The notes under the pieces were generated by a model, which saw only the letters and a list, made by a program, of their open reading frames with translations, was not told the origin of the DNA and ran no database searches. The translations under genes were made by a program, and so were the position numbers. From positions 8,961-72,960 of IMG/VR virus record IMGVR_UViG_3300033066_002009: a stretch of DNA of 64,000 bases. One strand, written 5' to 3'. This stretch comes from a virus. This document shows positions 33,688-43,934 of the stretch, piece after piece (positions within the stretch are counted from its first letter, which is position 1; each line of letters opens with the position of its first letter).

Positions 33688-33760
33688 GGGTCCGTAGCTT
33701 AGCGGGTAGAGCAGCGGCCTTTTAAGCCGTTGGTCCCGGGTTCAAATCCCGGCGGACTCA
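33688..33760 (+). tRNA. tRNA-Lys(TTT)
   Basis: Cloverleaf: acceptor GGGTCCG/CGGACTC, anticodon loop CTTTTAA, T-arm CCGGGTTCAAATCCCGG. Confidence 0.85.
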
Positions 33761-33788
33761 CTTTGACAAGAAAGGAGGTGAAATTTAT

Positions 33789-34301
33789 ATGTCTAAGAAG
33801 ACAATGTCTTCGGAAAAAGCGCGGGAACTGCGGATCGCAGCAGAATCTATTCGTTCCCATTTGGAGGGGATCGTGGATACGAATGCGTCGTTTCGAACGA
33901 TTTTGCGAGAGCTGGATGCGCTCGGTGACAAGTCGCACCTTAGTAACTTGGAGGCTTGTGCACTCCGGGGTTTGGTTCAAAACGCTGACCTCGTACACTT
34001 TGCAAAGACAGCCTGCAAAAAGAACGGAGCCAAACGCGGCGTTTATGCGACGAATCCAAGCGCGGCACCGGTAGTTGCGATCGGAGCCTTTCTCGCACGC
34101 AATGCAAAGCCAGAGGACTTCGAGGCACTCATTCGAATGGAGCGACGGGAGCAAAGGGCGTGTAGCGTCAATACCTGGCTGACTGACGTTGCTCGCAAGA
34201 TTGCGACTGAGATCCTCTACCCCAAGAAAGTGACTGAGGCCACGGTTGCCAAGACCGCGAGCACGCCCACTGCTCCGCCTCGGAGCACACGTCGCCGTTA
34301 A
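33789..34301 (+). CDS. hypothetical protein
   Basis: RBS AAAGGAGG. Confidence 0.5.
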   Translation: MSKKTMSSEKARELRIAAESIRSHLEGIVDTNASFRTILRELDALGDKSHLSNLEACALRGLVQNADLVHFAKTACKKNGAKRGVYATNPSAAPVVAIGAFLARNAKPEDFEALIRMERREQRACSVNTWLTDVARKIATEILYPKKVTEATVAKTASTPTAPPRSTRRR

Positions 34302-34388
34302 GCGTCTTGACAAGAAAGGAGTATCTTGTAAGTATGAGTACCGTCATGCAACCAACCTGCAACTAATCCACTCACCCATTACGTCGTT

Positions 34389-34679
34389 TTGCGCGAAGAC
34401 CTCCCAAGGGGGGTCCTCGCCGCACAAACCGTCCACGCCGCTGGGGAATCTTCGCCCGGCGCCTTGCCCGAAGGCACATACGCAGTTGTATTAGGCGTTC
34501 CTAATGAAGCAGCTCTGCTGCTGATTGAGGAGCGTCTTTGTGCATTCGGCATAGTCCACAAAGCAATAAGAGAGCCTGACCCGCCTTGGTGCGGTGCCCT
34601 CATGGCGATTGGCGTTGTGCCGGTCGTTGACCGTAAACCCGTGAGGCGGGCGCTTGGGCAGCTCCCGCTGCTCAAGTGA
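34389..34679 (+). CDS. hypothetical protein (TTG start, uncertain)
   Basis: Open frame only. No ATG and a weak RBS. Confidence 0.25.
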   Translation: MREDLPRGVLAAQTVHAAGESSPGALPEGTYAVVLGVPNEAALLLIEERLCAFGIVHKAIREPDPPWCGALMAIGVVPVVDRKPVRRALGQLPLLK

Positions 34680-34691
34680 AAGGACGTTAAA

Positions 34692-35027
34692 ATGGATACA
34701 ACTGTGATGCTGATCAAGGCCGAAATCCGCACTATCGAAAAGACCCTTAAAGGTCTTAAGACGGCTGCACGCGCATCGGGCCATCACATAACCCGGCAGG
34801 AAGCCCAGGTGCTTTCCGCCACCAAGGGATGGGCAACGCAGCTCTGCATGGCGCGCGCAGAGCAGCGGGGACGCATACATTTGCACAATGCTGCCGCGGG
34901 AGCGGAGCTGCGAGCAACTTTGCGTGCGCCCCAGCGGGGTGCTCTCGATCATGTGATTAGGGAGTTGAATCGGCGAACGGCAATTTGCCTGCCGGCTCAA
35001 GGTGAACAACAGCAACAATCGGCGTAA
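34692..35027 (+). CDS. hypothetical protein
   Basis: RBS AAAGGA. Confidence 0.45.
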   Translation: MDTTVMLIKAEIRTIEKTLKGLKTAARASGHHITRQEAQVLSATKGWATQLCMARAEQRGRIHLHNAAAGAELRATLRAPQRGALDHVIRELNRRTAICLPAQGEQQQQSA

Positions 35028-35068
35028 CACTCGCCCGGCCTGGGTTTAAAAAAGCCCAGGTCGGCTTT

Positions 35069-35144
35069 GAGGGCATAGCTCAGAGGTAGAGCTGCTCGGC
35101 TGTTGGGGCCGAGATGGTCGCGGGTTCAAATCCTGTTGCCCTCG
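35069..35144 (+). tRNA. tRNA with non-canonical anticodon arm (9-nt loop CTGTTGGGG, or 6-bp stem plus TGTTGGG). Anticodon ambiguous (TTG or GTT).
   Basis: Acceptor GAGGGCA/TGCCCTC is perfect. D-arm GCTC..GAGC, T-arm GCGGGTTCAAATCCTGT. Confidence 0.55.
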
Positions 35145-35341
35145 CAATATTCCACCGTAATGGGTGGAGTAGAAAACCACGGTTCGGGAGGTTGGCCTGG
35201 AGGTAGCCATCCTTTAAAGAGTGCGCGAGAGGTTCTCCCTGCGAAGCCCTATAAGGCACAGGGGGGTAAATATCATCAAGGAAGGGAATAGGCACCTTGG
35301 TGCGACCTCAGGGCCAGACCAAAACACGGCCGTCATATGGA

Positions 35342-35418
35342 ACAAGTTGGAATGTCGTCTAAAGGTTAAGACGTCGGCACTTAGAAGGCCGGAAATACGG
35401 GTTCGAGTCCCGCCAACT
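35342..35418 (+). tRNA. tRNA-like, anticodon loop CTTAGAA (TAG, a Leu anticodon) with short variable arm and atypical D region
   Basis: Acceptor AAGTTGG/CCAACTT, T-arm CGGGTTCGAGTCCCG. Confidence 0.45.
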
Positions 35419-35587
35419 TTTTCTTAAAGGTGCCCTAGTACTAGAGGAACGGGCGCCCCATTACAAAGTCAGCAAATCGTCAGCCTATGCGACGACGACC
35501 TGATGAGACGGTACAGACCCTCAGAGCCTTTGGTGTAGCAACACACCTAACCGTGGTTGACGCCGGCAATAGCCCGGAAAAGGAAAA

Positions 35588-35630
35588 GCGGGGCATCGGC
35601 GTCATGAACCGAATGCCCCGCTTTTTTTTG
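35588..35630 (+). terminator. rho-independent terminator
   Basis: Hairpin GCGGGGCATCGGCGTCATGAACCGAATGCCCCGC followed by T8. Confidence 0.75.
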
Positions 35631-35699
35631 TACCCCGCCCTGGGTTCGAACCAGGCTCTCGCGGTTTAGAAGACCATGGAGGACTCCAGATCGCGGGGC
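35631..35699 (-). tRNA. tRNA-Arg(TCT)-like (short or atypical D-arm)
   Basis: T-arm CCTGGTTCGAACCCAGG, acceptor GCCCCGC/GCGGGGT, loop CTTCTAA. Confidence 0.5.
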
Positions 35700-35727
35700 A
35701 TAGTGGATTTGACGTGTACGACAGTTG

Positions 35728-35811
35728 CGGAAGACGGAGGAATCGAACCCCCAGCATTACGCTTCGGTCCGGTTAGCAACCGGCGGTGGCTCCATAGCCA
35801 CATCGTCTTCC
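35728..35811 (-). tRNA. tRNA-Ser(GCT)
   Basis: Acceptor GGAAGAC/GTCTTCC, loop TTGCTAA, long variable arm, T-arm GGGGGTTCGATTCCTCC. Confidence 0.85.
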
Positions 35812-36021
35812 ATGGAAGGTAAAAGAAACAAAGGAGCTAATTCATGGCAGAGTGTGATGGAAGCGGTGATTTGGTCCCTCAACTGGATCCGGACAGCTTG
35901 ATCATGAAGAATCGCACTGACTCCGACGCGTATTGTTGGAAGTGCGATATGTATCGACCAATCGGCCCGCCTTTCAAAGACCCCAAGGCGGGATGGGTGG
36001 CGGTTCTGCTGCCACACGAGC

Positions 36022-36103
36022 GGAAGGTGGAGGAATCGAACCCCTAGGCTTTCACCCACCCCGGCGTTCGAAGCCGGTTGCCAGCCATTTAGCGGCACCT
36101 CCC
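36022..36103 (-). tRNA. tRNA-Ser(CGA)
   Basis: Anticodon stem CCGGC/GCCGG, loop TTCGAAC, long variable arm. Confidence 0.8.
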
Positions 36104-36110
36104 ATTACGG

Positions 36111-42917: not shown

Positions 42918-43023
42918 GACCCTACCACGCACGGTGTTGAGCCTCGTGCTCCTCTCCTCGCGCCCCCATACCCCGTGGGGGAGTTCGGCGTTCCGCTGTG
43001 CGTGACTGGGGTCACTATTTTTT
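42918..43023 (+). ncRNA. structured small RNA E (~106 nt; 5'/3' closing stem)
   Basis: TGGTACAAGG lies 6 nt upstream. GACCC..ACGCACGG pairs with CCGCTGTGCGT..GGGGTC before the T run. Confidence 0.5.
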
Positions 43024-43025
43024 AG

Positions 43026-43096
43026 TTCCGGTGGAAGGAATCGAACCTCCGTAGCAGGCTTCAAAGTCCCGCGTCCTGCCATTGAACGACACCGGA
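43026..43096 (-). tRNA. tRNA-Gln(TTG)
   Basis: Acceptor TCCGGTG/CACCGGA, loop CTTTGAA. Confidence 0.8.
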
Positions 43097-43169
43097 AAAA
43101 CTACTTACGCCCTGTTAGCCGCACACGCGGGCGTACCGTGTCACTCACTAAGACGGCGTTTCATCTTTG

Positions 43170-43240
43170 TGCGGGTAGGGAGAATCGAACTCCCGTGACC
43201 AGTTTGGAAGACTAGCGTTCTACCATTGAACTACACCCGC
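43170..43240 (-). tRNA. tRNA-Gly(TCC)
   Basis: D stem GTTC/GAAC, loop CTTCCAA. Confidence 0.85.
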
Positions 43241-43245
43241 GTTAG

Positions 43246-43318
43246 TGCCCCCGGTGGGAGTCGAACCCACAACTAACCGATTAAAAGTCGGCTACGCTGC
43301 CAATTGCGTCACGGAGAC
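43246..43318 (-). tRNA. tRNA-Lys(TTT) second copy
   Basis: D stem ACGC/GCGT, loop CTTTTAA, T-arm GTGGGTTCGACTCCCAC. Confidence 0.8.
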
Positions 43319-43323
43319 GTTGG

Positions 43324-43395
43324 TGGCGTGGGCTGGATTCTCACCAGCACTTCGAGCCTCTAGGGCTCGCGTCTTAAAAATTTGACCACCGCGCC
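43324..43395 (-). tRNA. degenerate tRNA-like element (anticodon loop CCTAGAG; D-loop lacks GG; T-loop TGAGAAT)
   Basis: Acceptor GGCGCGG/CCACGCC with CCA encoded. Perfect anticodon stem CGAGC/GCTCG. The conserved D-loop and T-loop nucleotides are absent. Confidence 0.4.
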
Positions 43396-43400
43396 ATTAG

Positions 43401-43473
43401 TGCCCCCACTCGGGTTCGAACCGAGATCACCCGGTTAAGAGCCGGATCGATTAGCCAATTATCGGATGGAGGC
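43401..43473 (-). tRNA. tRNA-Arg(TCT)
   Basis: D stem CGAT/ATCG, loop CTCTTAA, T-arm CTCGGTTCGAACCCGAG. Confidence 0.85.
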
Positions 43474-43585
43474 ATTGTGCAGGGCAACAGCCCTGCTATT
43501 TCGTCAAATTCCACTATTCTTTTTTCAGTTTGCCCGACTACACGGTTTTCGCATTTCGCTACTCAACTCGCCGGGTAAAACTCAG

Positions 43586-43670
43586 TGGAGCGGATAGGAC
43601 TCGAACCTATGAAGACCCGAAGGTCGACTGATTTACAGTCAGCTGTCTTTGCCGCTTGAACAACCGCTCC
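43586..43670 (-). tRNA. tRNA-Tyr(GTA), type II
   Basis: Acceptor GGAGCGG/CCGCTCC, loop CTGTAAA, long variable arm. Confidence 0.85.
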
Positions 43671-43716
43671 ATTAAAGCTCGATATTTATATACGGCCTCG
43701 AAGACCGGGTCGTTGG

Positions 43717-43788
43717 TGCGGATGGCGGGAATCGAACCCGCGGCCTGATGCTTGGCAAGCACCCGTGGTACCACTCCACTACATCCGC
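43717..43788 (-). tRNA. tRNA-Gly(GCC)
   Basis: D stem GTGG/CCAC, loop TTGCCAA, CCA encoded. Confidence 0.85.
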
Positions 43789-43792
43789 GCAG

Positions 43793-43863
43793 AGCCCTAG
43801 GGGAGAGTCGAACTCCCATTGCCTGTGTACGAAACAGGCAGTCTACCGTTGACTTACCAGGGC
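43793..43863 (-). tRNA. tRNA-Thr(CGT)
   Basis: D stem AGTC/GACT, stem CCTGT/ACAGG, loop TTCGTAC. Confidence 0.85.
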
Positions 43864-43864
43864 G

Positions 43865-43934
43865 CATGTCGCCAGGGAATCGAACCCTGAAGCAGGAGTT
43901 TTGGAGGCTCCATGGTGACCATCACCTGCGACAT
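43865..43934 (-). tRNA. tRNA-Trp(CCA)
   Basis: Acceptor ATGTCGC/GCGACAT, loop CTCCAAA, short D-loop. Confidence 0.7.

Follow-up and report, generated by a model that had tools for sequence, protein, structure and literature searches.

The 64,000-nucleotide (nt) stretch of DNA analysed here (positions 8,961 to 72,960 of the IMG/VR virus record IMGVR_UViG_3300033066_002009; hereafter the window) is DNA of a large, uncultured tailed phage that carries an array of transfer RNA (tRNA) genes at 33688-43934 and, embedded in it, a 384-nt element at 35175-35558 on the + strand whose two ends together rebuild helices 42-44 of 23S ribosomal RNA (rRNA), the GTPase-associated centre (GAC). The array is probably a functional, polycistronically expressed and near-complete supply that frees phage translation from the host tRNA pool, with the rescue functions of a transfer-messenger RNA (tmRNA) and a PTH2 peptidyl-tRNA hydrolase alongside. 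Our tentative reading of the embedded element, which we call the GAC-mimic RNA, is that it belongs to a widespread, undescribed phage RNA family, co-oriented and probably co-transcribed with tRNAs, that builds a GAC around a variable payload and acts as a decoy or hijacker of a GAC partner off the ribosome.

Run with default settings on the whole window, ARAGORN found 39 genes, all of them tRNAs, 37 on the − strand and two on the + strand, and their span is identical to the limits that an earlier reading of the sequence by a model (the first-pass annotation) had given. Thirty-two of the 39 pass the gathering score of 29 bits of the Rfam tRNA family RF00005; the four class II Ser genes, Val-UAC and Trp-CCA score below this cut-off yet form clean ARAGORN cloverleaves, and for the Ala-GGC gene Rfam scores the tRNA-like end of tmRNA instead of RF00005. 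Lowering the ARAGORN threshold by 5% (-ps95) adds four marginal genes, Leu(UAG) at 35344-35420 (+), Arg(UCU) at 35630-35704 (−), Met(CAU) at 37901-37970 (−) and Cys(GCA) at 42468-42536 (−), which brings the total to 43. The claim of about 43 tRNA genes is thereby matched in number, neither setting having reported far fewer, but the call at 35344-35420 belongs to a larger non-tRNA RNA. This marginal Leu(UAG) reaches 28.6 bits with the Rfam tRNA family over 35353-35415 (cut-off 29), and the Arg(UCU)-, Met(CAU)- and Cys(GCA)-like genes have no Rfam tRNA-family match at E<=1; being called at -ps95 only, with these Rfam results and with one of them inside another RNA, the four do not stand as bona fide tRNAs. 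The firm set therefore comprises the 39 default genes, with 35 distinct anticodons for 18 amino acids, or 20 amino acids if the marginal genes are counted.

In the ARAGORN structures and their flanking bases the identity elements are as expected, with G3:U70 in all three Ala genes, G-1 paired with C73 in the His gene and a long variable arm in Ser and Tyr. The first-pass annotation was right about the Ala and His features, about the predominance of the − strand and about redundancy, which we find as duplicated anticodons for Lys-UUU, Gln-UUG and Leu-UAG (two genes each), and the Met-like and Cys-like genes that it listed are both among the marginal calls. Its gene tallies need correcting for Leu (five anticodon genes, four of them without a long variable arm, where one was claimed), Arg (three firm and one marginal, against five) and Gln and Lys (three of each, against two). 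CCA, said to be encoded by many genes, is encoded in only 9 of the 43, C74 in 41 of the 43, and the packing of 3-8 nt does not hold throughout: 18 of 39 − strand intervals measure 12 nt or less and the remainder 13-327 nt, apart from three of 767-1210 nt that hold open reading frames (ORFs). The array on the − strand begins with Trp at 43934 and extends to about 35630; in its tight runs 4-7 nt separate a discriminator base from the next 5′ end. Many genes are followed on their 3′ side by a C(A/U)AA trailer, which may be a processing signal. A scan for sigma-70 promoters was uninformative, with 3 sites against 4.8 expected. Special tRNA types were also considered and rejected: aragorn -i gave nothing credible by way of intron-containing tRNAs, the anticodons CUA, UUA and UCA of suppressor or recoding tRNAs are absent among the 43 genes and the ORFs are normal under code 11, and the tRNA-Sec model RF01852 gives, below threshold, matches that fall on the class II Ser genes and on weak tRNA-like calls. 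Other Rfam matches below threshold, to the Plastid-ycf2, mascRNA, YrlA and Tymo tRNA-like families, are likewise echoes of the tRNA shape.

If simple wobble is assumed, 93% of the 11,388 codons in 49 window ORFs can be read by the 39 firm tRNAs, which bears out the description of a near-complete decoding set. The codons left unread by the firm set are AUG, AUA, UGU/UGC, AGA and CCU/CCC, and a modified UGG anticodon may read CCU/CCC too. Most four-codon boxes are served by two or three isoacceptors, and rare and abundant codons are served alike, a pattern more in keeping with a general supply than with compensation for rare codons. A complete set is not reached, with no firm Met, fMet or Cys gene at the ARAGORN default. 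Both companions of the array named at first pass were found: a tmRNA gene at 49523-49869 (+; RF00023, 131.2 bits, model positions 1-374), which ARAGORN missed, and a PTH2 gene at 20448-20867 (+; PF01981, E 1.5e-30, 106 bits, profile positions 1-115 of 115). The tmRNA shows every feature sought with RF00023, including an Ala-type G3:U70 acceptor and a tag frame beginning ANDN; this frame, ANDNVDGNVV...QAAA, is unusually long at about 36 codons (the first 20 translated, the rest read by eye), and the gene ends in CCU rather than CCA.

From the gene content observed we infer how the tRNAs would be expressed, processed and charged. The − strand array of about 37 genes would yield a few polycistronic precursors, which host RNase P and 3′ processing enzymes would cut, and because only 9 genes encode CCA, the CCA-adding enzyme would complete most of the tRNAs. 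The product would be a general, host-independent decoding supply and not a top-up for a few rare codons, and its most likely role would be to sustain translation when host tRNAs are lost to degradation, cut by tRNA-targeting defences or ill matched to the codons of the phage, while stalled ribosomes and peptidyl-tRNA would be removed with the aid of the phage's own tmRNA and PTH2. The suggestion that the phage re-tools translation is supported to this extent, as a deduction from gene content.

Several tRNAs depart from the standard form. Among the five firm Leu anticodon genes, four have a length of 75-76 nt and so fall short of the class II long-arm form (about 85 nt), the exception being the 83-nt gene at 37321-37403. 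The short-arm Leu genes with anticodons CAA, GAG and UAA share a Leu-like D arm and A73, and in Leu-CAA and Leu-UAA an A-C pair closes the anticodon loop; the second Leu(UAG), at 43321-43395, has 75 nt, C33, a D loop lacking GG, the T loop UGAGAAU and an encoded CCA. The + strand tRNA at 35069-35145 has the loop UGUUGGG, which ARAGORN reads either as Gln-UUG with G33 or as Asn-GUU with a 2-nt 'intron', and it carries 11 nt in place of the 7-nt anticodon loop of the Rfam model; the His gene has two acceptor mismatches. Short Leu genes recur elsewhere: in 72 phage loci that had been retrieved for different purposes, the short form accounts for 17 of 41 Leu genes but for 0 of 38 Ser genes and 0 of 18 Tyr genes. 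Short-arm Leu tRNAs were seen in seven of our comparison loci (L004, L005, L009, L012, L021, L027 and L062) as well as in the window. Bixzunavirus mycobacteriophages have two neighbouring tRNA-Leu genes, annotated at 74-75 nt, that share 75% identity with the Leu(GAG)/Leu(UAA) pair of the window, and Erwinia Kolesnikvirus has tRNA-Leu genes of 77 nt. Bacterial LeuRS does not require the variable arm, which SerRS and TyrRS do, and this indifference would explain short Leu but not short Ser or Tyr genes. Such recurrence suggests that the class II arm is commonly dispensed with in phage tRNA-Leu.

The GAC-mimic RNA came to light through an Rfam search by E-value, in which 35186-35238 (+) aligns to positions 1095-1146 of the bacterial large-subunit (LSU) rRNA model RF02541 with 23.7-28.8 bits (cut-off 50), near-identically to the bacterial consensus over about 30 nt. 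The matched segment is helix 43/44, the L11-binding part of the ribosome that forms the GAC. A 23S rRNA gene was rejected, the match being confined to model positions 1095-1146 with tRNAs and unrelated sequence on its flanks. The local placement by Rfam of helix 44 (H44) directly after helix 43 (H43), at 35220-35238, was rejected as well, because comparison with the family sets the H44-like half 300 nt downstream. In the resulting structure, all on the + strand, a closing helix resembling helix 42 (H42) pairs 35175-35186 with 35547-35558 (12 positions, one mismatch) and encloses an H43-like hairpin (35189-35213), the junction UUUAAAGAGU (35213-35222), a variable insertion (35223-35528) and the H44-like block CUUUGGUGUAGCAACACAC (35528-35546). 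A1067 is replaced by G in this copy. The insertion holds the tRNA-like cloverleaf at 35344-35420 (+; aragorn -ps95, anticodon UAG, CCA not encoded), a feature of the window copy alone among the family members. The 23S rRNA of an uncultured bacterium (locus L147, a metagenome-assembled genome (MAG)) has G1067, G1070, U1072 and U1092-A1099, a rare combination that matches the window mimic and is a possible hint to the host lineage.

In order to delimit the family we searched IMG/VR with a strict 5′ pattern from helix 43, which matched 55 contigs (L011-L065), two of them with real 23S and 53 with a GAC-mimic element. By BLAST, the element was also found, unannotated, in the cultured phages Pseudomonas pf16, Milchi, Astolliot and UNO-G1W1, Aeromonas 4_4572 and Acinetobacter ME3, and further in Xanthomonas XacN1 and XbC2 and the jumbo phages GAP32, CBB, Serratia BF, Kaldavass and the Erwinia pEa_SNUABM series. 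Paenibacillus phage Pd_22F (L073) was dropped from the family, its match continuing as genuine 23S; this record and many 2-7 kilobase (kb) 'phage' records of INPHARED hold genuine 23S, probably as contamination from the host or as a transduced piece. Of the 47 loci with ARAGORN tRNAs, 46 have all their tRNAs on the strand of the element, the exception being the window. The element often starts a few nt 3′ of a tRNA, with the next tRNA as near as 92-160 nt, and in XacN1 it follows a 2′-5′ RNA ligase gene. Most copies have the second block CUUUGGCGUAAUAGCACAC, corresponding to helix 44 (positions 1091-1104), 90-385 nt downstream of the first, followed by sequence complementary to the bases just 5′ of the first block, and copies with both conserved blocks measure 115-408 nt. 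The layout common to the family is thus an H42-like closing helix, H43, the junction UUUAAAGAGU, a helix that closes the insertion, H44 and the return strand of the closing helix, with 40-330 nt of unrelated sequence inserted between the rRNA-like halves. A sub-family comprising the window, ME3, XacN1, GAP32, BF and several IMG/VR contigs has the conserved insertion motifs CAGGGGAAGGA, GGGCGAAGCCU and GACCCUUAGAG. In Rfam 15 the family is absent, the window and 15 other loci giving partial LSU matches only, and full-text literature searches, together with text from a paper on 224 candidate RNA motifs, returned no published description of a GAC-mimic RNA.

The closing helix differs in sequence among phages while its complementarity is kept. 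For an analysis of covariation we aligned 41 distinct cores, joining the 5′ and 3′ blocks through a dummy loop; 82.9% of the cells are paired, and the H42-H43-H44 junction covaries with a score of 0.531, compared with 0.167 +/- 0.012 for shuffles (none of 500 as high) and 0.125-0.159 for slid partners. Double changes occur in 13 of the 14 closing pairs and in all five insertion-closing pairs, and the 1058:1080 pair is G-C in 16, U-A in 13 and A-U in 11 cores. Position 1072 changes together with the 1092-1099 pair, the phage family showing C with C-G (36), U with U-A (4) and U with U-G (2) and no mixed combination. The same rule holds in 121 real 23S genes (110 C with C-G, 11 U with U-A), obtained in a scan of genome contigs; AAAGAGU is a usual feature of 23S in many bacteria, and each of the 121 matches looked like real rRNA. 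We take this covariation to reflect a base triple already known from the GAC (Conn, Gutell and Draper 1998). Covariation of the helices and of 1072 with 1092-1099 makes it very probable that the phage RNA adopts the ribosomal fold. Its members moreover have in common the derived A at 1101 and the insertion point AGU...UUUG, which argues for one family and not for repeated captures from hosts.

From this structure, covariation and distribution we infer, with low confidence, that the GAC-mimic RNA is expressed and processed from a tRNA transcript, takes a GAC-like fold and binds a partner of the ribosomal centre. In the window, the + unit of the odd tRNA at 35069-35145 (Rfam 47.8 bits), which ends 29 nt 5′ of the element, and the 384-nt RNA would converge on the same terminator as the − strand array. 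This is probably a bidirectional intrinsic terminator, a GC-rich hairpin at 35588-35629 preceded by an A-rich tract and followed by a run of eight T; it was read in the sequence, and our pattern scan missed it, the loop probably being longer than the scan permits. The RNA would probably be processed out of the tRNA transcript by tRNA-processing enzymes. The first candidate among GAC partners would be uL11, but the uL10-L7/L12 stalk, the RelA/tRNA complex or toxins directed at the GAC, for instance the ADP-ribosyltransferase Tre23, may also be considered. A toxin that ADP-ribosylates the GAC is known (PMC8661411), so decoys for factors aimed at this centre are conceivable. In one speculative version, the GAC-mimic RNA would blunt the activation of RelA by the flood of phage tRNAs. 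The window contains an ORF with a RelA/SpoT-type HD_4 domain (11944-12528, +; Pfam E 7.9e-9) which may be an alarmone hydrolase and fits, again speculatively, a phage that interferes with the stringent response.

A general tRNA supply has to be weighed against two other accounts of the array, codon compensation and the replacement of defence-cleaved tRNAs, which are not exclusive of it and may both contribute. In classical compensation the tRNAs would serve only codons that are common in the phage and poorly served by the host. This is the long-standing explanation of phage tRNAs (PMC10264068), and with a G+C content at third codon positions (GC3) that ranges from 0.5 to 0.95 among the window ORFs, part of the genome may differ from host usage; it predicts a selective subset, however, whereas the array is near-complete, serves the most and the least used codons and has two to three isoacceptors per box, and we consider compensation by itself unlikely. 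The array might instead consist mainly of spare parts for tRNAs cut by anticodon nucleases or other tRNA-targeting immunity, with the deviant loops as escape variants, and the idea that such defences drive the acquisition of phage tRNAs is already published (PMC10264068). Odd anticodon loops and stems (C33 in Leu-UAG at 43321, the A-C closing pairs of Leu-CAA and Leu-UAA, G33 at 35069), a weak CPD-like ORF upstream and the RNA ligase genes beside the neighbouring vault-like gene in more distant relatives are in line with it, but some 40 genes far exceed the few tRNAs known as targets, so that we keep it as a possibility without favouring it. Three sets of observations weigh against the general supply that we prefer. 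Met and Cys are present as marginal genes only, lacking Rfam support, which implies that the phage still relies on host tRNAs for initiation. The structurally deviant genes, with missing D/T-loop contacts in Leu-UAG at 43321, G33 at 35069 and acceptor mismatches in His, could be inactive or serve other roles. Finally, our INPHARED and IMG/VR searches found no relative with the same array, and its conservation therefore cannot be demonstrated: megablast of 33000-45000 against INPHARED gave single-tRNA matches only and no relative at the DNA level, IMG/VR scans with the vault-like protein encoded beside the array and with a coiled-coil ORF inside it gave no match, nor did an exact pattern from Leu(GAG), the contigs with vault-like homologues either were short and ended near the gene or showed no tRNAs downstream, and two huge-phage vault-like loci have no tRNAs within 20 kb.

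For the GAC-mimic RNA the rival is a dead, functionless fragment of host 23S acquired by illegitimate recombination. About 30 nt nearly identical to the bacterial consensus could be such a relic, and real pieces of rRNA do occur in phage entries of INPHARED, among them Pd_22F and many short ones. A relic would not explain that the halves are split by 40-330 nt, that the closing helix is always present and complementary though its sequence varies, that A1101 and AGU...UUUG are common to at least 53 contigs and many cultured phages, or that tertiary covariation is kept among copies which are not recent duplicates of one sequence, and we give this explanation very little credence. Several points count against a GAC decoy all the same. 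The retrieval pattern fixed much of H43, whose invariance is therefore inflated and partly imposed, although variants retrieved by BLAST do differ at U1061, U1078 and C1076; the fold z-score of the window copy by itself is only -1.8; and binding to uL11 is a leading guess drawn from identity to the rRNA site. One could also take the whole region for a tRNA island of a bacterium or for a misassembled piece of host DNA, given that some bacteria have tRNA clusters and that the vault-like gene has homologues in Myxococcota. Yet hub, lysis and HNH genes of a phage are present in the window while housekeeping genes are absent, most of the small and dense genes have no assigned function, and the phage database places the closest vault-like homologues in 462-735 kb huge phages, all of which makes a bacterial origin highly improbable.

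As an array, the window's belongs to a known kind, in that tRNA arrays with tmRNA are documented in huge phages and the idea of replacing tRNAs lost to defences is published. Huge phages carry up to 67 tRNAs plus tmRNAs (PMC7162821), and the window resembles huge and jumbo phage arrays (Al-Shayeb et al. 2020, PMC7162821; XacN1; Rak2-like) in having tens of tRNAs in one region together with a tmRNA and translation genes, but differs in lacking a relative at the DNA level and in that the approximately 75 window ORFs tested yielded neither an aminoacyl-tRNA synthetase gene nor one for a ribosomal protein. The T4 cluster is similar in its tight tRNAs, the homing endonuclease gene inside it (segB) and its co-located stable RNAs other than tRNA (rnaC and rnaD), but has 8 tRNAs. 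T4 rnaC ends in a tRNA-like T arm; homology of rnaC/rnaD to the GAC-mimic RNA was considered and is not convincing by eye. Endonuclease genes comparable to the window's HNH gene lie in or next to the tRNA clusters of Lukilu, Milchi and T4. Bixzunavirus (for example Lukilu) and Erwinia Kolesnikvirus share with the window short Leu tRNAs of 74-78 nt and an HNH gene in the cluster, and the Bxz1-like group has about 30 tRNAs plus a tmRNA; their genomes are unrelated to the window, and the GAC-mimic was not found in the stretches fetched.

The embedded RNA itself is closest to the 23S GAC (helices 42-44, E. coli positions 1051-1108, the site of uL11 and thiostrepton), with near-identity over 1055-1088 and 1091-1104, the same helices, a covarying 1058:1080 pair and an identical rule for 1072 and 1092-1099. 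Unlike the ribosomal centre, it stands alone, has an insertion of 40-330 nt in place of A1089-A1090, has A and not U/C at 1101 and is closed by a helix of free sequence. As a large phage-associated RNA beside tRNA genes it is comparable to GOLLD and ROOL, large structured RNAs of phages and prophages that also lie beside tRNA genes and are possibly co-transcribed with them (PMC5737381), but which are not described as rRNA-like in the literature read here. The GOLLD (RF02032) and ROOL models have no match in the window at E<=1 and none at the elements of 15 loci scanned at E<=0.01. Among these loci GOLLD matches only in L021, where a GOLLD RNA (685-1176, −; 165 bits, with a tRNA match inside) occupies a separate site in the same tRNA array as a 5′ GAC-like motif copy. 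The mRNA leaders of ribosomal protein operons (L1, L10), which act in cis as regulators, mimic rRNA binding sites loosely. Like them, the GAC-mimic RNA reproduces a protein-binding site of rRNA outside the ribosome; unlike them, it stands alone among tRNA genes and is near-exact in its identity to the rRNA site.

Reading from the left end of the array, the genes are arranged as follows, called by ARAGORN unless stated otherwise. On the + strand, tRNA-Lys(UUU) (33688-33761; RF00005, 73.2 bits) lies directly 3′ of the vault-protein-like gene and is followed by the odd tRNA and the GAC-mimic RNA. Past the terminator hairpin all tRNAs are on the − strand: the marginal Arg(UCU)-like gene (35630-35704, aragorn -ps95), which has a poor D arm and acceptor stem, tRNA-Ser(GCU) (35727-35811), the class II genes tRNA-Ser(CGA) (36020-36103) and tRNA-Ser(GGA) (36109-36196), and, beyond an HNH endonuclease gene within the array (36677-37216, −; Pfam HNH_5, 2.7e-17), tRNA-Leu(CAA) (37242-37316; 75 nt, no long variable arm), the sole class II Leu gene, tRNA-Leu(UAG) (37321-37403; 83 nt), the short-arm tRNA-Leu(GAG) (37548-37623) and tRNA-Leu(UAA) (37628-37702), and tRNA-Val(UAC) (37705-37780), which encodes CCA. 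The marginal Met/Ile2(CAU)-like gene of 70 nt (37901-37970, aragorn -ps95) has a truncated D arm, while its anticodon loop (CUCAUAA), T arm and acceptor stem are all good. A run of eight tRNAs with spacers of 4-15 nt, Arg(CCU), Arg(CCG), Arg(ACG), Ser(UGA), Thr(GGU), Ala(UGC), Ala(CGC) and Val(GAC), fills 38054-38690, followed by tRNA-Ala(GGC) (38880-38951), tRNA-Phe(GAA) (39278-39351; also Rfam), tRNA-Asp(GUC) (39562-39638), tRNA-His(GUG) with its G-1 and C73 (39643-39716) and tRNA-Ile(GAU) with an encoded CCA (39879-39952). An ORF for a 351-amino-acid coiled-coil protein (40019-41074) with GC3 0.95 lies here on the tRNA strand. It is followed by tRNA-Pro(CGG) (41160-41236) and tRNA-Pro(UGG) (41330-41406), both with encoded CCA, and tRNA-Glu(UUC) (41553-41625) and tRNA-Glu(CUC) (41631-41702), all four found by both ARAGORN and Rfam. 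The marginal Cys(GCA)-like gene (42468-42536, aragorn -ps95) has a 5-base-pair acceptor stem. Then come tRNA-Asn(GUU) (42540-42612) and tRNA-Thr(UGU) (42624-42697) and, again with Rfam in agreement, tRNA-Gln(CUG) (42828-42899), tRNA-Gln(UUG) (43025-43096), the tight run Gly(UCC), Lys(UUU), the atypical Leu(UAG) at 43321-43395 and Lys(CUU) (43169-43473), and the class II tRNA-Tyr(GUA) (43585-43670). The 5′ end of the − strand array is formed by tRNA-Gly(GCC) (43714-43788), Thr(CGU) (43792-43863) and Trp(CCA) (43864-43934).

The assignment to a phage draws support from genes for a gp5-like hub and an M15 endolysin, from a holin-like ORF, from the HNH gene and from homologues in huge phages; outside the array the window also encodes a dCMP deaminase, a papain-like protease, a sigma-70 region 4 protein and a radical SAM protein. 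The vault-like gene (30956-33595, +), directly 5′ of the first tRNA, encodes a full-length homologue of the major vault protein of 879 amino acids that is about 40% identical to proteins of Myxococcota MAGs and 35% identical to products of genes of 462-735 kb huge phages, its sole homologues in the phage database. The identical protein is recorded on a JGI contig of 108,546 base pairs. Vault proteins of phages have been reported before (bioRxiv 10.1101/2023.11.10.566534). GC3 is uneven, at 0.88 in this gene and about 0.5-0.56 in structural genes, compared with 0.95 in the coiled-coil ORF. Further + strand genes encode a Ser/Thr protein kinase (21303-22760), a dual-specificity phosphatase (13834-14427) and a metallophosphoesterase (2776-3426). 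A weak 2H/CPD-like ORF just 5′ of the vault-like gene (29904-30305, +), a LigD-phosphoesterase/ATP-ligase fusion beside the array (45566-47368, +), the RNA ligase genes that adjoin the same vault-like neighbour in distant relatives (L009, L010) and the 2′-5′ ligase of XacN1 may together reflect a theme of RNA repair.

Taken alone, the array adds one more uncultured large phage to a well-known pattern, and it is the RNA embedded in it that matters more. One consequence for the annotation of phage arrays is that some of the 'weak tRNA' calls are parts of larger RNAs. A near-exact copy of the GAC, backed by covariation, sits unannotated in the tRNA clusters of many phages available in culture, such as Pseudomonas pf16, Xanthomonas XacN1, Acinetobacter ME3 and Cronobacter GAP32, and offers a testable handle on how tRNA-rich phages deal with the base of the ribosomal stalk, the stringent response or ribosome-targeting defences.

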